DNA of 64,000 nt. Origin: an uncultured bacterium (GTDB lineage Bacteria; Babelota; Babeliae; Babelales; RVW-14). Both the position numbers and the translations under genes were made by a program. Numbering within the stretch: position 1 is the first letter of the stretch; each line of letters opens with the position of its first letter. Shown piece by piece: positions 36,526 to 55,100 of this stretch. The notes below the pieces were generated by a model. That model was not told where the DNA came from. It worked only from the letters and a program-made list of their open reading frames with translations, and ran no database searches. Location: the NCBI GenBank assembly GCA_903825355.1, contig CAIKAH010000021.1, positions 9,273 to 73,272 of the forward strand. Reading direction: 5' to 3'.

Positions 36526-39246
36526 TTAGCCAGCGCGGAACCAGCTTAAGGGGTTTTTAAAATAGGCAGTCCATGACTGGTCTTGTGGGGTTGTTGGAGG
36601 AGCTGAAGCCCTACCAGTGCTTATTGATTCTTGTTGAGGCGTATTATCATGAGCAGCTGCAGGAGTTGCGGGTAATGCATGAGCCGGTTCTGCTGGGGTG
36701 CTTTGTGCAAATAGTGGTGAAGATGCTACAGGAGGTGGGGTGGCAATCGCGACTGTAGAAAATTGCGATTTGGATGGTGTTACTACTGCTGGTGCCGGAG
36801 CTGGTGCGGCTACATGTTTTACAGAAGATGATTTATTGTCAGTGGTTGATGGTTTTGTGGTAGTTGATGGTTGTGTTTTAGATCGTGTTACTCGAGCAGT
36901 TGGCACCGGTGCTGGGGCTTCTGGATTATGTGTGTGATCTGTTTGTGCGGTGCTTTTTCTACCTCTCCTGGTGCCGCCTCTTCCTGCTGGTTGAGCCGGT
37001 GACTGCAAAATTGGAGAAGCTGCTGGGAGTTCTTCTGTAGGGGTTATAGTTGAAGCCTTTGTTTTTGCTGGCTTCGTAGCAAGAGGCGTTATGTCGGGAT
37101 CTGGTACTATGACCGGAACAATAACAGGTGCCGGCGCTGGGGCTGGGGCATTTGTTACAGGTGGCATTCTTACTGACACTGCTTGTGTCGCTGGCGCTGG
37201 GACATTAGCAGTGACCCTTGCATCAAGGGTCATGTCTTCAGCGATCGCTACTTCTGCCGCAGGCGCAGGTTCTCCTGCGAATGCTTTATAGATTCTTTTT
37301 CCGATTTCTACCGGAACAGTTACAGGAGCCATGATTACTCCTGCTCCTGCTCCTGTAACTAAGTCACTAGCTGCATTTCGTGTTGATTGCCTTAGTTGCT
37401 CTTGTGCACCAGTAATAGCCGGTACTAATTTGTTTACGCTATCAAGGACCGGCTGGGCCTCTTTGACAAGTGCTTTTCCTAATCCAGCAGCGTTGTTTTC
37501 TACACCACCAATAAAATCTTCGCCTAAGCGTTCAAGGATAGTCGTTTGTTCTGGGGTGCGAGTAGGGATGCTGGCGCGCAATATAGGATGTGTAAGTTCT
37601 TTTTGTAGAACTCCTACCAATTCGCCACCAATTTGACCACCAAGCTCTTTTGCTGCTGTAGTTTCATCAGCATTTGGTCGAGGAAGATCAGCCTTAGTCT
37701 TAGGCTTAGTAAGCTCTTTTTGTATGCCATCGCCCAGGCCACTGCCGAGGGTATCGCCGAGCTGTTTACCCAGTGTTGTTTCGCCAGCTTTAAGTCCTGC
37801 TCTACTATCAGGAATAGGCGTTGTGAGCTCCTTGCTGAGTCCTGTTGCGACACCACCACCAAGCCCTGCGCCAAGAATACTTGCGCGGGTTGCCATGCCA
37901 TCTGGGCTTTGAGGGGCAGGAGCCGGTAGGGGGACGCGTTCATTATTTATGGTATCAATGGCGTTTGGTAATGCTTTGTTCAGTGCTTCAGTAACAGCAG
38001 CAACCACTGCTGCTTGTAGACTATCAGCATTTTCTCGCATTACTTTATTAACTGCTTCAGAGGCTCCAGCTCCAACAACAGTACCAAGGTTTTGCCCACG
38101 AGTGGCCATGCCATCTGGCACTGCTGGTGTCACCGGTACTGGTACACGTTCAGTAGTAACACGATCAAATGCTGCGGTCATTGATTCGGCTACTGTTTGT
38201 TTGACTGCTTCTTGCAGCGCCTGTTTATTTGCTTGGAACTCTTTAGTTACCTCTTTAACTACGCCTGCACCTGCTTCGGCTGCTGTTTGCTTGAATGCTT
38301 CTTGTACCGCTTCTTTATTTGCTTGTATTTCTTCGGTAAACCCTTGGGCAACCCCTTTGCCTGCTTCTTTAGCCGCTTTTCCGATTCCTTCCCCGAGGCT
38401 GGCGATACCGTCATTGAGCTTTTTTTTAATTGGTTGGACCACGTACTTATTAAGGGGCTCGCGCAGCCAATAAACAATAACGCATATAGCGCCAACAATA
38501 AGCGCTTTAATCATGATTTCTTTGAGCCGGTTTGGTTGAATAATTGGTTGGCGGGTTTCATAGACAGCAAGCAGTGTAATGAAGTCTTTAATGATGAGGT
38601 CATCAATTTTTTGCTCACCAAGTTCACGATTGACCGCTAAATATTCATGCTTGAGCTTGTTCATATGCCAAATCATAGTCTCTTTGCGACTATTGAAGTT
38701 CGGGTCCCCATCATTTACCATTGCAAGAACAATATATGTTTTGCTGACTAAAGTTCTAAAGGGAGCTACTGCCCCGGTGGGGGTTGCAATTTTAAAACTA
38801 TATAAACTGTCTAGGCAATCAATCATGCGGACAGATTGTTCATGGCGTAGATCATTTTCTGCCAGTAGCCGATGCATTTTAAAAACAAAAAACTTATTAA
38901 ATCGTTGCAGTAATAGTTTTGCGCTAGCATCATTTTTTGTGCAGAGTAGATCAATAAGATCAAGGAGCATTTTTGCTTGGGTTTGGATATTGGTGTCTTT
39001 GCCGCTCCATCCTGAATTGTTTAAATTAATATCACCAAGCACAAAAGGAATATCAAAATAGCGATTAGCCATCAATTGATAGCAGTATTCTTTTGCGCGT
39101 TCTTCAGCTGTCTCTAGAGCCATAGAAAGTGGTTTGCTAAAATCAGCCCTATTCGTAAGATCGTTGGTACGGCTGTAGGTAAGTGTATTATTAAAAGATA
39201 AAGAAGCAATAACTACAAAATACAGGATGCTTGATATAAAACTCAT
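36526..39246 (-). CDS. large membrane-anchored repeat protein with Pro/Ala/Thr-rich disordered C-terminus
   Basis: 906 aa. N-terminal signal/anchor MSFISSILYFVVIASLSF, a ~220-aa unique domain, a TM helix (ALIVGAICVIVYWL, aa ~248-261), three classes of internal repeats (aa ~300-586), and a P/A/T/S-rich tail (aa ~655-890). The many plus-strand ORFs here are antisense shadows. Confidence 0.75.
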   Translation of the reverse strand: MSFISSILYFVVIASLSFNNTLTYSRTNDLTNRADFSKPLSMALETAEERAKEYCYQLMANRYFDIPFVLGDINLNNSGWSGKDTNIQTQAKMLLDLIDLLCTKNDASAKLLLQRFNKFFVFKMHRLLAENDLRHEQSVRMIDCLDSLYSFKIATPTGAVAPFRTLVSKTYIVLAMVNDGDPNFNSRKETMIWHMNKLKHEYLAVNRELGEQKIDDLIIKDFITLLAVYETRQPIIQPNRLKEIMIKALIVGAICVIVYWLREPLNKYVVQPIKKKLNDGIASLGEGIGKAAKEAGKGVAQGFTEEIQANKEAVQEAFKQTAAEAGAGVVKEVTKEFQANKQALQEAVKQTVAESMTAAFDRVTTERVPVPVTPAVPDGMATRGQNLGTVVGAGASEAVNKVMRENADSLQAAVVAAVTEALNKALPNAIDTINNERVPLPAPAPQSPDGMATRASILGAGLGGGVATGLSKELTTPIPDSRAGLKAGETTLGKQLGDTLGSGLGDGIQKELTKPKTKADLPRPNADETTAAKELGGQIGGELVGVLQKELTHPILRASIPTRTPEQTTILERLGEDFIGGVENNAAGLGKALVKEAQPVLDSVNKLVPAITGAQEQLRQSTRNAASDLVTGAGAGVIMAPVTVPVEIGKRIYKAFAGEPAPAAEVAIAEDMTLDARVTANVPAPATQAVSVRMPPVTNAPAPAPAPVIVPVIVPDPDITPLATKPAKTKASTITPTEELPAASPILQSPAQPAGRGGTRRGRKSTAQTDHTHNPEAPAPVPTARVTRSKTQPSTTTKPSTTDNKSSSVKHVAAPAPAPAVVTPSKSQFSTVAIATPPPVASSPLFAQSTPAEPAHALPATPAAAHDNTPQQESISTGRASAPPTTPQDQSWTAYFKNPLSWFRAG
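37489..38340 (-). repeat. in-frame tandem repeats inside the 906-aa gene
   Basis: Three classes: (1) 2 x ~30 aa (FTEEIQANKEAVQEAFKQTAAE / TKEFQANKQALQEAVKQTVAE); (2) 2 x ERVPxP..PDGMATR..LG motif spaced exactly 70 aa (210 bp) apart (GCCATGCCATCTGG at ~37894 and ~38104); (3) 3 x ~39 aa starting KELT(T/K/H)P. Confidence 0.8.
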
Positions 39247-47854: not shown

Positions 47855-50800
47855 ATGTCTGGATTTGGTAGAGGTAAGGGTATCTTAAGGAAATCGTTTG
47901 GCAAAATTAAAGAGGTTGTTTCGCTACCTAATCTGATTGAAGTACAATCAAAGTCATTCAATGATTTTGTACAACTTGACTGTATTCCATCAGAGCGAAA
48001 ACATATCGGACTTGAAAAAGTTTTGCGTGATACATTTCCCGTCGAGCAAAATGAGCGTATTTCGCTAGAATATGTAAGCTACGAACTAGGAGATTGGGCT
48101 TGTATCTGCGGTCAAGTCACCGGCATTATCAATCGTTATAAATGGACATGTACAGCATGTAAAAAGAGCGGTACTAATAAGCTAGCTGGAAGCAAGACTT
48201 GTCCATCATGTAAAAAAGATACTGCACAGTATGCTCATTGCAAAAAATGCTTCTCTCGTGTGTCGATCAAAGTTCCTGCTATTGTTGACGAGTGTCGTTA
48301 TAGTGGTAAAACATTTTCTTTACCGCTTAAAGTAAAGATGCAGTTGATTAGTTGGGATATAGATCAAAACACCAATCAAAAAATTATTCGTGATATTAAA
48401 GAGCAAGATGTGTTTTTCTGCGATCTTCCAGTGATGGTAGATCTTTATGAAGATCATGATGGAGTGTATCATCTTGGCAGCCAAGGCACATTCCTTATTA
48501 ATGGGGTTGATCGTGTAGTGGTAAGCCAGATCCACCGGGCTCCAGGCGTAATGTTTACCCTTAGTAAAAAATCTAAAGACTATCGTGGGCAGCCATATCA
48601 TGTTGCTCGTCTTATTCCAAGTCGTGGATCATGGCTTGATTTCGAGTTTGACCATAATGATTTAGTTTATGTACGCATTGATAAAAAGAAAAAGATTTTA
48701 GCTACCACCTTCTTGCAGGCAATTGGTATTGAGAAGAATAAGATTCTTTCAACTTTCTATAACTTCGATACTATCGAAGTTAGAAATGGCAACTTTTATC
48801 GTAAGCTTGATAGTGCCCTTATAGGGCAACGTCTTGAGGCTGGAGCTTTACCAAAAGAATTTGAAGGTAAATTTGCAGTTGGACAGCGTCTCACTAAGAC
48901 TCAGATTGAAAAGTTGCAAAAAGAAGGTCTTGACCGGTTGATAGTTCGTAAAAATAGTTTGATGAGCCGTATCATAGCGCAAGATGTTATTGCGCCTAAA
49001 ACAGGCGAAGTTATTGCTGCTTTGGGTACCGAACTTACCGAAGAACTTATTGAGATCATCGCTTCGGTGGGTACTATTTCACTTAAAATTATCCAGTCTT
49101 CTGGTTATGTGATCCAGCCGACTTTAGCACTTACGTTTGCTCAAGACCAGACAAACTCTCCTGAAGAAGCGCTGAAGGAAGTCTATACAAAGCTGAAACC
49201 TGGAGACATTCCTTCAGTAAAAGTTATGGAAGAGTATGTTGCTAATTTATTCTACAATCCGCGCTTTTATGATTTAACCGTCGTGGGTCGTATTCGTACT
49301 AACCGTAAGCTTGGACTGGAGATTGATGAAAGCATTACTTGCTTAACAAAAGAAGATATTATTGCAACCTTCAAATACTTGATTGGGCTTAAAGAGCGCG
49401 GTGAAGGGGAGTTGGATGATATTGACCATTTAGGTAATCGCTGTGTTCGTCTCGTAGGCGAATTGTTACAAAGTCAACTATATATTGGGTTTGCGCGTAT
49501 TGAGCGAATTGTTAAAGAACGGTTTAGGTTGCAAGAGAACTATGCATCATTAATGCCGTATGATTTCTTGAATGTAAAACCTTTGGCTGCAGTATTACGT
49601 GAGTTTTTTGGTACGGGGCAACTTTCCCAGTTTATGGACCAAACTAACCCTCTTGCCGAAATGGCACACAAGAGAAGACTATCTGCTCTTGGGCCCGGCG
49701 GTATTACACGTGAACGTGCCACGTTTGAAGTTCGTGACGTGCATACTTCTCACTACGGACGCATATGTCCAATTGAGACTCCGGAAGGTCAAAACATTGG
49801 ATTGATTTCTTCGCTCTCAACCTATGCTCGAGCAAATGCTCTTGGATTTATTGAAACTCCGTATCGCCCAGTTAAAGATGGCGTGGTTGCTGATAGTGTT
49901 CAATATATGGATGCATTTCAAGAAATTGGTGAACGTATTGCTCAAGCAAGCATTAAGGTTTCTCCTACAAATAAAATTGAAAATGATCGTGTTCTTGTAA
50001 GAAAAGATGGTGATTATATTTTAGAATCGCCAGAAAACATTTCTTATGTAGATGCTTCACCAAAGCAAATTTTCTCTGTACCAACAGCACTAATTCCATT
50101 CCTAGAGCATGACGATGCAAACCGTGCGCTTATGGGATCTAACATGCAACGGCAAGCTGTTCCTCTTATCAATTGCCAAGCTCCACTTGTTGGTACTGGT
50201 ATTGAATGTGAGCTAGGCTCTCTTGAAGGCGCTGTTGTTAATGCTCGTACGGAAGGGGTTGTTGAATACGTTTCTTCTGAAAAAATCATTGTACGCTTAC
50301 ACCCTGATGTAATAGGTGAAGCAGAATGGCTTTCCCGTCCGATTGACATTTATTATCTAAAGAAATTTGCTCGGTCCAGCCATAATACTTGGATTCACTT
50401 TAATCCTATCGTAGAAGTTGGCGATATTGTTAAAAAGGGTGACATTATCGCAACTGGTGCAGCAACGCAAAATGGTGAGCTAGCTCTTGGTAGTAACGTG
50501 TTAGTGGCATTCATGCCATGGCAAGGTTATAACTATGAAGACGCTATTGTTGTTAGTAAGCGTCTTGTCGGAGATGAAGTCTTTTCATCAGTGCACGTTG
50601 AAGAGTTTATTGTTGAGGCTCGTGAAACAAAGTTAGGTGCTGAAGAAATTACGCGTGATATTCCAAATGTGCCTGAGAAAGATCTGGCAGCTCTTGATGA
50701 GGATGGTATTGTTAAGATTGGTACTCGCATCAAGCCTGGTGATATTCTCGTTGGTAAAGTAACGCTCAAAGGAGATGTGCAAGTATCCCCTGAAGAAAAG

Positions 50801-52186
50801 TTGTTACGGGCTATTTTTGGTGAAAAGTCTCGTGAAGTACGTGATACTTCATTGCGAGTGCCGCCAGGAGTAGATGCTACCGTTGTTGATGTTAAAGTAT
50901 TTTCTCGCAGCGGGATTCGCAAGGATAAACGCTATAAAGAGATTGTCGTAAAAGAAACGCAAAAAATAGAAGAAAATTTTGCTTATCATTTACATATTCT
51001 TGAAAAAGGCATCAAGGCTAATGTTGTTTCACTTCTTACTGGAAAAACTAGCAAATCTACTACAGTTAAAGAATTGCTAGTTAAAGGTGTTTTTACAGAG
51101 GAACGCTTAGAGTTGGTGGAACTTGATCGCTTATTGACTATTACTACTGGCGACAAAGAAGTTGATAACAAAATTAAGACTTATAGCGATATCTTAACCA
51201 ATCAAATTCACGTATTGACTGCACTCAAAGAAGATCGTATTAATCAACTTCGTAAAGGTGATGATTTGCCTTCTGGTGTGATTAAGATGATTAAGGTATA
51301 CGTTGCTACTAAGCGTCGTCTATCTGTCGGGGATAAGATGGCAGGCCGCCATGGAAACAAAGGTGTGGTTTCGCGTATTGTGAACGTAGAAGATATGCCA
51401 TACATGGCTGATGGTACTTCAGTTGATATTGTTCTTAATCCGCTTGGTGTACCTGGTCGTATGAACGTAGGGCAGATTCTTGAAACAATGTTGGGAATGG
51501 CTGGCAAGGTAGCCGCAGATAAATTTGCTACACAATTAGCAGACATGTCCCATCAGGAAGTTAAGACAAAATTGTCTCACTATTACGGTACCGAAATTAT
51601 TAATGACATTGAAAAACAGTATGGTAAAGAAGAGATACTTAATCTTGCTCGTAAAACAGTTGCTCAAGGAGTAGCATTTAAAACACCAGTATTTGATGGT
51701 GCTGATTATGAAAAAGAGATACAGCCTTTCCTTACTGAACAAGGTTTGCCTGCTAATGGAACATACCCATTATTTGATGGTCGTACTGGTGAGTTATTTG
51801 ATCAACCAGTGACTGTTGGTTATATCTACATAATGAAGCTTAATCACTTGGCAGATGATAAACTCCATGCTCGTTCTGTTGGTCCCTACTCGCTTATTAC
51901 GCAGCAACCGTTGGGTGGTAAAGCACAATTTGGTGGGCAACGTCTGGGAGAAATGGAAGTATGGGCCCTTTATGCATATGGCGCAGCACATACTTTACAA
52001 GAAATGCTTACTATTAAGTCAGATGATGTTAATGGGCGTATTAAGGCCTATGAGGCGATTGTACGTGGTGAAGAGGTGCCAGAAGCTGGTATTCCAGAGT
52101 CCTTCAACGTATTAGTAAAAGAGCTACAGAGCTTAGGGTTACAAGTGGATTTGTTCAAGACAAGTAAGGAGCACGTTGGTGAATAA
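47855..52186 (+). CDS. rpoB: DNA-directed RNA polymerase beta subunit with N-terminal Cys-rich insertion
   Basis: 1443 aa. Canonical blocks present (INGVDRVVVSQIHRAPGV, GSWLDFEFD, RLSALGPGGITRERA.FEVRDVH.SHYGRICPIETPEGQNIGLI, NMQRQAVPL, GYNYEDAI, GDKMAGRHGNKGVVS, GGKAQFGGQRLGEMEVWAL). An extra ~63 aa with 8 Cys lies at aa 81-143. Confidence 0.98.
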   Translation: MSGFGRGKGILRKSFGKIKEVVSLPNLIEVQSKSFNDFVQLDCIPSERKHIGLEKVLRDTFPVEQNERISLEYVSYELGDWACICGQVTGIINRYKWTCTACKKSGTNKLAGSKTCPSCKKDTAQYAHCKKCFSRVSIKVPAIVDECRYSGKTFSLPLKVKMQLISWDIDQNTNQKIIRDIKEQDVFFCDLPVMVDLYEDHDGVYHLGSQGTFLINGVDRVVVSQIHRAPGVMFTLSKKSKDYRGQPYHVARLIPSRGSWLDFEFDHNDLVYVRIDKKKKILATTFLQAIGIEKNKILSTFYNFDTIEVRNGNFYRKLDSALIGQRLEAGALPKEFEGKFAVGQRLTKTQIEKLQKEGLDRLIVRKNSLMSRIIAQDVIAPKTGEVIAALGTELTEELIEIIASVGTISLKIIQSSGYVIQPTLALTFAQDQTNSPEEALKEVYTKLKPGDIPSVKVMEEYVANLFYNPRFYDLTVVGRIRTNRKLGLEIDESITCLTKEDIIATFKYLIGLKERGEGELDDIDHLGNRCVRLVGELLQSQLYIGFARIERIVKERFRLQENYASLMPYDFLNVKPLAAVLREFFGTGQLSQFMDQTNPLAEMAHKRRLSALGPGGITRERATFEVRDVHTSHYGRICPIETPEGQNIGLISSLSTYARANALGFIETPYRPVKDGVVADSVQYMDAFQEIGERIAQASIKVSPTNKIENDRVLVRKDGDYILESPENISYVDASPKQIFSVPTALIPFLEHDDANRALMGSNMQRQAVPLINCQAPLVGTGIECELGSLEGAVVNARTEGVVEYVSSEKIIVRLHPDVIGEAEWLSRPIDIYYLKKFARSSHNTWIHFNPIVEVGDIVKKGDIIATGAATQNGELALGSNVLVAFMPWQGYNYEDAIVVSKRLVGDEVFSSVHVEEFIVEARETKLGAEEITRDIPNVPEKDLAALDEDGIVKIGTRIKPGDILVGKVTLKGDVQVSPEEKLLRAIFGEKSREVRDTSLRVPPGVDATVVDVKVFSRSGIRKDKRYKEIVVKETQKIEENFAYHLHILEKGIKANVVSLLTGKTSKSTTVKELLVKGVFTEERLELVELDRLLTITTGDKEVDNKIKTYSDILTNQIHVLTALKEDRINQLRKGDDLPSGVIKMIKVYVATKRRLSVGDKMAGRHGNKGVVSRIVNVEDMPYMADGTSVDIVLNPLGVPGRMNVGQILETMLGMAGKVAADKFATQLADMSHQEVKTKLSHYYGTEIINDIEKQYGKEEILNLARKTVAQGVAFKTPVFDGADYEKEIQPFLTEQGLPANGTYPLFDGRTGELFDQPVTVGYIYIMKLNHLADDKLHARSVGPYSLITQQPLGGKAQFGGQRLGEMEVWALYAYGAAHTLQEMLTIKSDDVNGRIKAYEAIVRGEEVPEAGIPESFNVLVKELQSLGLQVDLFKTSKEHVGE

Positions 52187-52190
52187 CAAG

Positions 52191-55100
52191 ATGCTTGAAA
52201 GATTTCGTGAGTATATTAGCGGAACTCAGTTTAATGCGTTTCGTCTTGGTATTGCTTCACCGGATAAAATCCGCTCGTTGTCTTATGGCGAAGTAAAAAA
52301 AATAGAAACAATAAACTACCGCACCCTTAAGCCTGAGCGCGACGGTCTATTTTGCGCACGCATTTTTGGTCCTGTTAAAGACTGGGAATGTAACTGTGGC
52401 AAGTATAAGCGTATGAAGCATCGTGGTGTTACGTGTGAAAAATGCGGTGTTGAAGTAATTCAAGCGCGTGTTCGTCGTGAGCGCATGGGGCATATTAATT
52501 TGGTTTCTTCGGTGTGCCATATTTGGTTCCTGAAGGGAATTCCAAGTTATTTAAGCTTGATTATGAATATGACTGTACGTGATCTTGAGCGAGTGATTTA
52601 CTTTGATAGTTATATTGTAATTCATCAAGGAAATTCTCCTTTTGCACAAAAGACTCTTATTTCGAGTCAAGAGTATGATAGCTACGTGCACGCTAATCCA
52701 GAAGATACTCTCTTTAAGGCTGGCATGGGCGCAGAAGCAATTCGCGTTTTATTAGGTTTAATAGATCTTGCCTTTGAAGTAAGAAAAATTGAAGAAGAAT
52801 ACACTCAAACAACATCGGTAGCTGTTAAGCATCGGATTGCTAAACGCTATAAAGTTCTTGCTGGCATGGCACAAGCTGGGATTCGTCCTGAATGGATTAT
52901 TCTCGATGTATTGCCGGTGTTGCCGCCCGATCTGCGACCATTGGTACCGCTTGAAGGAGGGCGTTTTGCTAGTTCCGATCTTAATGATCTTTATCGTCGT
53001 GTGCTTAACCGAAACATCCGTCTTAAGCGGTTGATCGAACTTGAAGCCCCTGATGTCATCATTAAAAATGAAAAGCGCATGCTTCAAGAGTCTGTTGATG
53101 CATTAATTGATAATGGACGTCGTGGACAGCCAGTACGTGGGACTAACAAGCGTCCATTGAAATCATTGAGTGAAATGCTTCGTGGTAAGCAGGGTCGTTT
53201 TCGTCAAAACTTGCTTGGTAAGCGTGTTGACTACTCAGGTCGTTCAGTCATTGTAGTGGATCCAGAATTGAAAATGAATCAATGTGGATTACCTAAGATG
53301 ATGGCCCTTGAATTGTTTAAGCCATATGTTTATGTAGAGCTGCAACAGCGTGAACTTGCGCCAAACCTTCGCGTAGCAAAACGCATGGTTGAGGATATGA
53401 CCCCAGAAGTTTGGGAAGCTCTTGAAGAGGTAGTACGCGGGCGGCCGGTGCTATTGAACCGTGCACCTACTTTGCACCGCTTGAGTATTCAGGCGTTCTT
53501 TCCTCTGTTGGTAGAAGGTAAAGCTATTAAAATTCATCCTTTGGTTTGCTCTGCTTTTAACGCAGACTTTGATGGTGACCAAATGGCTGTGCACGTGTTG
53601 CTTAGTAAGACAGCACGTACCGAAGCTATACGTTTAATGCTTTCTACTCGGAATATTTTGACGCCAGCAAATGGTCGTCCTCTATCAGTGCCATCACAAG
53701 ATATGGTACTAGGATTGTATTATTTGACTAAGGGGCGCAAAAATGTACAGGGCGAAGGATTAGTGTTTAGCAACATTGAAGAAGTAATGTATGCATATCA
53801 GCACAAGCAAGTTAATGCACAAGCCCCAATTAAACTTCGTTTAGCTGATGGAAAACTAGTAGATACCACTGTTGGTCGTGTCGTATTGTATGAATCACTT
53901 CCCTCTGGAAGCAATTTTAACTGGATTAATAAAGCAGTTAAGAAAAAAGATTTATCGAATATGGTTGGCAAGGTTTATAAAGCCTTTGGTGCTGACGCTA
54001 CTGTAGATGCATTAGATAAAATCAAAAAGCTTGGTTTTTCTTATGCAACTACCGGTGGTATATCATTGTCGATGGATAATTTAGTTATTCCAGCAACTAA
54101 GCAAGAAGTTATTCGTAAAGCAACTGCAGAAGTAAATAAAGCTGAACAACTTTATTTAGATGGGGCCATTACCAATGGTGAACGTTATAGTAAAGTTATT
54201 CAAATTTGGTTTCGTGCAACTGAAGAACTTACCAACGACATGGTGCATCTGCTTGAAAATGATGATCGAAAAATTGCAGCAAACCAGAGCAAAGATAATG
54301 AGCCGTTTAATCCTGTCTTTATGATGTTGGATTCTGGGGCGCGTGGATCTCGTCAGCAAATTCGTCAGCTTGCTGCTATGAGAGGTCTGATGTCCAATCC
54401 ATCAGGTGAGGTTATGGAAACGCCTGTTCTAGCAAACTTTAAAGAAGGGCTAAGTGTTTTTGAGTACTTTGTTTCTACGCACGGAGCTCGTAAGGGGCTT
54501 GCAGATACTGCATTGAAAACAGCAGACTCAGGATATTTAACTCGTCGCTTAGTTGACGTAGCACAGGATGTGGTAATTACTACTCTTAACTGTCAAACAT
54601 TTGGTTCTGTCACGATTATGGACTTGAAAGAGTATGGAGAGATTATTCAGCCGTTAGCAGACCGTGTGTACGGACGCATTACAGCTGAGCCTATAGTTGA
54701 TCCTGTTTCAGGGAAGGTAATAGCAGAGCGAGATGTTATTATTACTGATGTGCTTATTGACCAAATTCGTGATTCAGCAGTATCCGCTATTGCAGTACGC
54801 TCTGTGTTAACCTGTCAGGCTAAGCGTGGGGTATGTGCTCAATGCTATGGCATGGATTTATCTACCTTGTCATTGGTTGATATAGGAACAGCTGTTGGTG
54901 TTATTGCTGCACAATCTATTGGTGAACCTGGAACTCAGCTTACTATGAGAACCTTCCACGTAGGGGGTACTGCAAGTGGTTTGGGTGAAGCAAGTACGTT
55001 TAAATCACGGTTTAGTGGTAAGGTTTCTTTCCGTAATGTTCATACAGTCAAGAATCGTTTGGGTGAAACGGTTATTATGAATCGTAAATCTAAGATTGTG

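Follow-up and report, generated by a model that had tools for sequence, protein, structure and literature searches.

Why should an RNA polymerase beta subunit carry 63 additional residues near its N-terminus, eight of them cysteines, and what might such a segment do? The gene in question, rpoB, lies at 47855..52186 on the forward strand of a 64,000-nucleotide stretch of bacterial DNA (the window) and encodes 1443 amino acids, as assigned from the open reading frame list, the translation, and Pfam and PDB matches. Its product contains Pfam Rpb2 domains 1, 2, 3, 45, 6 and 7 and matches PDB beta chains with E values down to 2e-53, and the gene stands in its usual context, preceded by nusG-rplK-rplA-rplJ-rplL and followed by rpoC. 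A sequence-only reading of this DNA had claimed that about 63 extra residues separate two conserved RpoB blocks, and the letters at 48095-48283 read exactly as claimed. This insert (48095..48283, forward strand, RpoB amino acids 81-143) is an eight-cysteine double zinc-ribbon-type module in the beta1/protrusion domain; it translates in the rpoB frame as WACICGQVTGIINRYKWTCTACKKSGTNKLAGSKTCPSCKKDTAQYAHCKKCFSRVSIKVPAI, with YVSYELGD before it and VDECRYSG after it.

Direct reading of the codons also bore out the eight cysteines at the proposed spacing, CxC-x13-CxxC-x13-CxxC-x9-CxxC. They fall into four knuckles, all on the forward strand: C83-x-C85 within WxCxCG (knuckle 1, 48101..48109; codons 48101-03 and 48107-09), C99-x-x-C102 (knuckle 2, 48149..48160; codons 48149-51 and 48158-60), C116-x-x-C119 (knuckle 3, 48200..48211; codons 48200-02 and 48209-11), and C129-x-x-C132 (knuckle 4, 48239..48250; codons 48239-41 and 48248-50). 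As set out below, knuckles 1 and 4 are the first and second halves of a putative outer zinc site, and knuckles 2 and 3 those of a putative inner zinc ribbon. Half of the cysteines in RpoB (8/16) sit within the insert; given the 0.58% cysteine content of the remaining protein, the chance of finding at least eight in 63 residues is approximately 4e-9. GC content showed no break across the insert.

We compared the N-terminal 292 residues of RpoB with every PDB chain, which yielded matches to 53 distinct beta sequences. These chains align with the RpoB N-terminus as one or two stretches, and none of the 53 has a counterpart of the insert. In the three printed alignments, the first matched stretch ends at query amino acid 78-81 and the solved chains have only about 3-6 residues opposite amino acids 81-143, while no tabulated best stretch starts before query amino acid 139.

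Close relatives carry the same segment. Queried against 5.8 billion proteins, the insert together with its flanks retrieved insert-bearing RpoB fragments at 55-88% identity, and the named matches were Candidatus Dependentiae. In addition, we scanned one genome per species (GTDB) and found at least 140 relatives, of which 80 were kept; these are labeled Dependentiae, Babeliales or TM6, or are generic or 'uncultured Pseudomonadota' metagenome-assembled genomes. Absence from close relatives, which would have spoken against the insert, was not observed: all 80 genomes, which are independent assemblies, encode it with all eight cysteines. Complete chromosomes are among them, by accession CP074345 (Vermiphilus pyriformis) and AP025250, by name Vermiphilus pyriformis and Dependentiae bacterium Noda2021. 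Among 81 sequences (the window and 80 loci), which diverge by up to approximately 45% in the insert region, the eight cysteines, G90, R94, W97, Y126 and R135 are invariant in 81/81, and W81, G86 and Y95 (each 80/81), L110 (79/81) and V136 (78/81) are nearly so.

We then considered selection on the insert. Against the closest genome (L005, TM6 bacterium UASB124), the ratio of nonsynonymous to synonymous substitution rates (dN/dS) was approximately 0.02, equal to that of the flanks; the ratio is usable for this relative only, as dS is saturated beyond it (above 1 or undefined). With more distant genomes, dN was 0.18-0.34 for the insert versus 0.04-0.09 for the flanks, a 3-5-fold difference. From the labels of the relatives, the invariance of the cysteines and the dN/dS, we infer that the source organism is a Dependentiae bacterium and that the insert, as a translated feature, is under purifying selection. 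Together, these data show that RpoB carries the insert as a genuine accessory domain that is translated and maintained by selection.

The insert might instead be a chimera of the assembly, an intein, or selfish or mobile DNA; nothing but the sudden gain of 63 residues by a conserved gene would favor this explanation, and we give it practically no weight. The insert is in frame, lacks a break in GC content and is shared by 80 assemblies at a dN/dS of approximately 0.02, which rules out such origins, and AlphaFold packs it confidently onto beta1. Inteins comprise at least approximately 130 residues with a Hint fold, an N-terminal Cys or Ser, and a C-terminal His-Asn followed by Cys, Ser or Thr. 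No intein comes close to being as short as the insert, whose first residue is Trp and whose last two, ahead of Val, are Ala-Ile; it has no terminal His-Asn or Hint-type pattern, and there was no Pfam match to a Hint domain in the window RpoB.

What kind of domain is it? The four cysteine knuckles, of the CxxC or CxC type, stand at ribbon-like spacing. Scored directly, the window insert gave 20.9 bits with Pfam Zn_ribbon_6 (PF07191; E=3.6e-4; cutoff 25) and 11.2 bits with DZR (PF12773; cutoff 27.3). An AlphaFold2 model of RpoB amino acids 1-292, built from 28 aligned sequences, placed the insert with confidence in the context of the N-terminal region: the mean predicted local distance difference test score (pLDDT) for amino acids 81-140 was 87-94 (approximately 93), above much of the surrounding beta1, with short strands at 80-82, 97-99, 124-126 and 137-139. 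When the insert was modeled alone, strands or bridges appeared at 97-99, 105-106 and 124-126, which we read as a possible three-stranded ribbon around the inner knuckles. Foldseek neighbors of this isolated model were mostly of the zinc-ribbon or rubredoxin type, namely Rpb12/RpoP, the MCM N-terminal zinc finger, the LapB rubredoxin domain, Nop10 and eL40; Rpb12 ranked first, although not significantly. The insert is thus a cysteine-rich double zinc-ribbon-type module, as the sequence-only reading had suggested from what it took to be one or two knuckle pairs; the invariance of the cysteines, the AlphaFold model and the Pfam DZR score of a homologous insert, described below, support this. We assume that the bound metal is zinc.

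An exhaustive search of 1.84 billion representatives with a hidden Markov model (HMM) of the insert alone returned 16 hits, comprising RpoB fragments, seven members of a Streptomyces paralog family, and two proteins with repeats (P0064 and P0068) that matched only partially over short stretches; no free-standing relatives of the module were found in this search.

Variation among relatives suggested how the eight cysteines are organized. All eight are kept in 54 of the 67 Dependentiae-type RpoB fragments that cover the insert. In 11 others (P0020, P0059, P0097, P0102, P0106, P0107, P0108, P0113, P0121, P0122 and P0124), at least three of the four inner cysteines (99, 102, 116 and 119) are gone and all four outer ones (83, 85, 129 and 132) are kept, whereas the reverse, loss of outer with retention of inner cysteines, was seen in none of the 67. 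Loss occurred by substitution and small deletions: C99 alone of the inner cysteines remains in four of the 11 variants, and P0108 represents a minimal form in which the inner part is wholly deleted, leaving 45 amino acids. Most of these clasp-only variants lie on short metagenomic contigs, so that any single case could be a sequencing error; the P0107 cluster includes a 131-kb contig. The closest relatives of P0020 (77-78% identity) are of the full eight-cysteine type, indicating that the inner cysteines were lost more than once; the variants are diverse, with at least one recent loss.

Because the inner cysteines can be lost while the outer ones are kept and never the other way round, there is good support for two nested metal sites, predicted to be an obligatory outer clasp of C83, C85, C129 and C132 and a dispensable inner ribbon of C99, C102, C116 and C119. 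The outer clasp would hold the two ends of the insert to each other where it leaves beta1, at the base, and the inner ribbon would form a distal, optional tip; the strands and bridges of the isolated model are consistent with such a ribbon at the tip.

The insert also occurs outside Dependentiae. With the Dependentiae fragment P0020 as the seed, a search retrieved approximately 55 further RpoB N-terminal fragments at 43-47% identity (lying among P0123-P0179), the named ones from Acidobacteriota, order Vicinamibacterales. Their insert occupies the same site, with the consensus GNWECKCGKLxGLHHLRKPCxNCGATLIADPYGDxxVLCPRCGxxNxARGDVCDICGxTVxLKLKYDVD, CxxCG knuckles, and a spacing of CxC-x12-CxxC-x15-CxxC-x10-CxxC. 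Eight cysteines are present in 54 of the 55 fragments, the exception being an evident frameshift. Two of these inserts scored above the Pfam DZR cutoff of 27.3 (32.8 and 28.3 bits), and one also exceeded the cutoff of the zinc-ribbon family Auto_anti-p27 (31.4 versus 24.1 bits). Alignment of the Dependentiae and Vicinamibacterales inserts without flanks (hhalign) gave a probability of 96.8% and E=2.3e-10 over 60 columns with every cysteine in register, which shows that the two are homologous. Beyond the cysteines, only the scaffold residues W81, G86, L88, G90 and V136 are common to both groups.

The two phyla may have come to share the module by vertical inheritance with losses, lateral transfer, or parallel insertion. 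Common descent of the Dependentiae and Vicinamibacterales RpoB proteins was rejected as the cause, as the Vicinamibacterales flanks (42% and 47% identity to the window RpoB) are no closer than those of insert-less RpoBs of other bacteria (34-46% and 42-47%). The insert is thus not special to one lineage, and the term lineage-specific has to be widened to two phyla and a Streptomyces paralog family.

In another reading, the eight thiolates would be a redox or metal switch that senses oxidative stress or metal limitation in a protist host, through bound zinc or through iron of the rubredoxin-like or Fe-S kind, and changes how the polymerase behaves. Eight closely spaced cysteines in CxxC knuckles, CxxCG in Vicinamibacterales, would also fit a rubredoxin-type iron site, and the hosts of Dependentiae are amoebae and other protists (PMC6561590), within which they live. 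However, the insert lacks a CxxCxxC...C Fe-S signature and is also carried by free-living soil Vicinamibacterales, and we regard a switch of this kind as very unlikely.

A third setting for the module is a family of Streptomyces proteins (P0061, P0065-P0067 and P0069-P0076), of which the full-length members are approximately 1220-1280 amino acids long, carry the module at about amino acids 166-249, and, where named, are annotated as hypothetical proteins. Four loci were located: L081:10001-13759 (Streptomyces chartreusis, GCA_040677035.1), L082:2880-6719, L083:6001-9777 and L084:2832-6608. Each protein is laid out as a 120-residue head without assignment, an RpoB-like N-terminus, a degenerate C-terminal half of beta, and the N-terminal third of beta'. 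Pfam recognized a partial Rpb2 domain 6 plus Rpb1 domain 1 and nothing else, and amino acids 386-1159 align over ordinary rpoB-rpoC junctions (tblastn). The RpoB-like part matches window amino acids 33-199 at 30% identity (E=5e-23), better than it matches acidobacterial RpoB.

In an alignment of 11 members (36-43% identity), the module's eight cysteines never vary, and the beta' zinc-binding domain (ZBD) keeps its four at 90% conservation or more. By our reading of this alignment, the paralogs also appear to keep a flap-tip-like TPEERLLxAIFG together with beta' lid and clamp-helix segments. In place of the beta motif GDKxAGRHGNKG they have a degenerate GDxLxxxDG, and the NADFDGD motif was not found in the alignment; the paralogs are apparently catalytically dead. 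Since these dead proteins retain the module along with the flap-tip helix, beta' ZBD and clamp helices, the module may belong to the upstream, factor-binding face of the polymerase.

The window RpoB has a second, smaller insertion, LYEDHDGVYHLGS (approximately 13 residues, amino acids 197-209; 48443..48481, forward strand), which lies between LPVMVD and GTFLING. This segment is opposite a gap in all PDB chains, is present in all Dependentiae sequences and not in Vicinamibacterales, and is predicted to form a beta-hairpin, with AlphaFold strands at 197-199 and 205-207. An L.E...G...G segment resembling it occurs in the Streptomyces paralogs, and this likeness points to a Dependentiae-type origin of the family. 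A phage or plasmid origin found no support: in plasmids, tblastn picked up nothing but ordinary rpoB-rpoC junctions (29% identity), and a scan of viral contigs gave no relatives.

In all three members examined, at four loci in three genomic settings, a STAND NTPase gene (380-470 amino acids) lies on the same strand immediately 5' of the paralog gene. The NTPases of two members pass the Pfam NACHT cutoff or are recorded as NACHT, and one matches the PADLOC Avs1b model (E=1.8e-10); that of the third member has only faint AAA_16 and weak HTH_26 matches. One of these loci adjoins Mrr, pPIWI_RE, helicase and SbcC-like genes and so stands among defense genes. The paralog itself is not covered by any PADLOC model, and the pair is not described in two relevant conflict-system papers.

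The paralog could be a polymerase 'decoy' that serves as the sensor of an immune system. Taken further, the beta module would be a second zinc domain facing the beta' ZBD across the upstream DNA, the two zinc modules embracing the duplex or the sigma- and factor-binding face, and Streptomyces would have copied it, along with the flap-tip helix, clamp helices and beta' ZBD, into a dead mimic, the bait of a two-gene STAND/NLR-like immunity that fires when a phage protein grabs the polymerase. We consider this extended scheme improbable. The dead beta/beta' fusions paired with STAND NTPases may represent an undescribed conflict system.

What, then, could the module do in a working polymerase? Its insertion point lies after strand 69-78 and before helix 144-150 of beta1 (the protrusion). 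Approximately 35 residues downstream, in the same N-terminal beta1 segment and sheet, is the D-IKEQ strand (amino acids 180-184), in which K182 is invariant and E183 and Q184 are at least 90% conserved. Within it, I181-K182-E183 (48395..48403, forward strand) aligns to DIKEQ of solved beta chains and is the equivalent of E. coli beta IKE 117-119, the strand that docks the RID domains of Mfd and CarD. The insert has a net charge of +11 in the window and a mean of +8.2 among Dependentiae (n=81); the remaining RpoB has a net charge of -18. CarD on the protrusion contacts DNA at -13 to -15, just upstream of the -10 element (bioRxiv 10.64898/2026.02.09.704077).

We favor a reading in which the module is a metal-stapled scaffold with a lineage-tuned surface that, in Dependentiae, most likely contacts nucleic acid, and we put the probability of this reading at roughly 45%. 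The scaffold would be rigid and would lie on the protrusion's outer face, turned upstream, its surface tuned lineage by lineage. Nucleic-acid contact is proposed because the Dependentiae surface is predicted to be polycationic with invariant arginine and aromatic residues (R94, Y95, W97, Y126 and R135, of which Y95 is kept in 80/81). The module would touch the upstream duplex or fork DNA (or RNA) in open and elongation complexes, taking on within beta itself the part that CarD or the linker of RbpA play in trans, and the resulting effect would be a firmer grip of the polymerase on AT-rich DNA. This role on the upstream face is the part of the reading that we infer more weakly.

Several observations weigh against the reading and call for caution. 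The window's own insert reaches no Pfam cutoff; modeled alone, it attains only moderate confidence (pLDDT 68), and Foldseek found no significant match for the isolated insert (best E=0.75). The orientation of the module is a prediction from topology and solved structures. Some Dependentiae do without the inner ribbon, where the module is richest in lysine. Finally, the Vicinamibacterales insert is nearly neutral, with a mean charge of +1.5; since only scaffold residues are shared as well, DNA contact cannot be what the module is conserved for.

The same difference in charge (+8 versus +1.5), with only the scaffold conserved between the phyla, would be expected of a protein-docking platform for sigma, for a Tudor-domain factor of the Mfd/CarD/PcrA type, or for a lineage-specific regulator, its surface retuned in each lineage. 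Such a platform is a possible but less probable alternative. The insert shares its sheet with the conserved Mfd/CarD docking strand, and the Streptomyces paralogs keep the module together with what look like the known docking sites for sigma and factors, namely the flap-tip helix and, in beta', the clamp helices and ZBD. Moreover, the small zinc ribbons of archaeal and eukaryotic polymerases (Rpb12, Rpb9, TFIIB and Elf1) are mostly protein-protein adaptors. Against docking, no candidate for a partner emerged; besides, a net +11 over just 63 residues is extreme for a surface that binds protein, other than a very acidic one.

A further idea is that the insert arose in a permissive loop and was kept as a structural staple for beta1 stability or polymerase assembly, with no ligand. 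Its obligatory part would be the outer clasp at the base, while the distal ribbon can decay; the insert protein evolves 3-5 times faster than the flanks, and the loop is short in all solved polymerases, evidently without functional constraint there. Like docking, pure stapling is a serious though less probable alternative. Against it speak the conservation of the surface residues R94, Y95, W97, Y126 and R135 across 81 genomes despite divergence of up to approximately 45%, the maintenance of a high net charge in an otherwise acidic RpoB, and the retention of the module in three very different protein lineages.

A conserved zinc ribbon at this place in beta would add a new structural element to an intensively studied enzyme, on the face that Mfd and CarD work from and that upstream DNA passes. 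It offers a handle on transcription in Dependentiae, obligate intracellular parasites with almost no experimental biochemistry, as well as in Vicinamibacterales, which recur in metagenome-assembled genomes. The states of the insert (full eight-cysteine, clasp-only and absent) constitute a rare-genomic-change marker that could help to place lineages.

Several other features of the window were recorded. The gene for the beta' subunit, rpoC (52176..56306, forward strand; Pfam Rpb1 domains 1-5), has its longest frame from a TTG at 52176, 11 bases before the rpoB stop codon; an alternative ATG start lies five codons later at 52191, which leaves a 4-base gap to rpoB. The rpoC stop codon is followed 8 bases later by a tRNA-Val(GAC) gene (56314-56389). 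Since this gene runs into the 5' part of the longest rpsO frame (56329-56685, TTG start at 56329), the true rpsO start must lie further downstream. Elsewhere, a 906-amino-acid open reading frame on the reverse strand (36526-39246) had no Pfam match at E up to 1e-5; its neighbors are ordinary housekeeping genes (photolyase, mnmG, sufB, glmS, gyrB, radA and an M49 peptidase).

Within the window, the insert also resembles the ZBD of beta' (C72, C74, C87 and C90; 52389-52445 in rpoC, forward strand). This domain and the beta insert (48092-48160) both read D-W-x-C-x-C-G followed by CxxC 12-13 residues on, and the ZBD spacing, CxCG-x11-CxxCG, is that of the Vicinamibacterales insert. A single pairwise comparison of the Vicinamibacterales insert with a beta' ZBD gave 42% identity over 31 amino acids (E=2e-4), and the other local pairwise match between insert and ZBD had E=0.013. 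Both would be zinc modules, predicted in the case of the insert, on the upstream side of the enzyme. Homology of the two was nevertheless set aside as a finding and is a lead at most, as hhalign gave 27.5% over 14 columns only; RpoC was also not among the listed hits (E up to ~13) of the insert HMM within the window. In the ZBD, the CxC and the next CxxC share one zinc, whereas the pattern of cysteine loss in the insert argues against that pairing. The likeness may reflect either convergence or a very old partial duplication.

To our knowledge, no metal site has been described in a bacterial beta subunit, and in 2010 neither Vicinamibacterales nor Dependentiae were represented among the available genomes. 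We found no description of the insert in the literature, a search that did not extend to the Lane & Darst 2010 catalogue (beta-i1 to i3). A 2024 survey of beta and beta' insertions (PMC11515920), whose sampling includes Dependentiae and Acidobacteria, lists five beta sites (uD2 N-terminal half, uD2 C-terminal half, uD3, uD5 and uD4) and assigns most beta insertions to the BEAN fold; it makes no mention of zinc, cysteine or Dependentiae-specific inserts, in agreement with the earlier view that no metal-binding insertion was described here. The present insert, at amino acid 80 in the N-terminal protrusion and N-terminal to the lobe, matches none of the five sites. At 63 amino acids it is also much smaller than beta-i4 (119 residues) and beta-i9 (99 residues); beta-i1 to i3 lie N-terminal of beta-i4 (PMC2939025).

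Like the known beta insertions (beta-i4/i9/i11/i12 of Lane & Darst, SI1, SI2, and BEAN/BBM2), the insert is an extra, clade-restricted, surface-exposed domain between conserved segments, missing from the 53 PDB chains and present in Dependentiae and Vicinamibacterales. It is probably also a handle for regulators, the part that SI1 plays for DksA/TraR in E. coli. Unlike BEAN/BBM2 insertions, it is a cysteine-rich zinc ribbon, predicted to be metal-dependent; we found only zinc-ribbon features and hits and nothing of the BEAN fold (CATH 3.90.105.10), for which the Foldseek hits were not checked specifically. With DZR/Zn_ribbon_6 proteins and Rpb12/RpoP it shares four cysteine knuckles within about 60 residues and short beta strands, but compared with DZR/Zn_ribbon_6 its first knuckle is CxC rather than CxxC, and it is an internal insert and not a free protein.

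CarD and RbpA provide the working analogy. CarD, on the beta protrusion, reaches upstream DNA; the basic linker of RbpA touches the same DNA as CarD, and some RbpA proteins bind zinc. The module differs from both in having no sequence or fold relationship to them and in being part of beta itself. We therefore describe the insert as a lineage-specific RNA polymerase insertion whose fold and site are new and which holds a putative metal centre.

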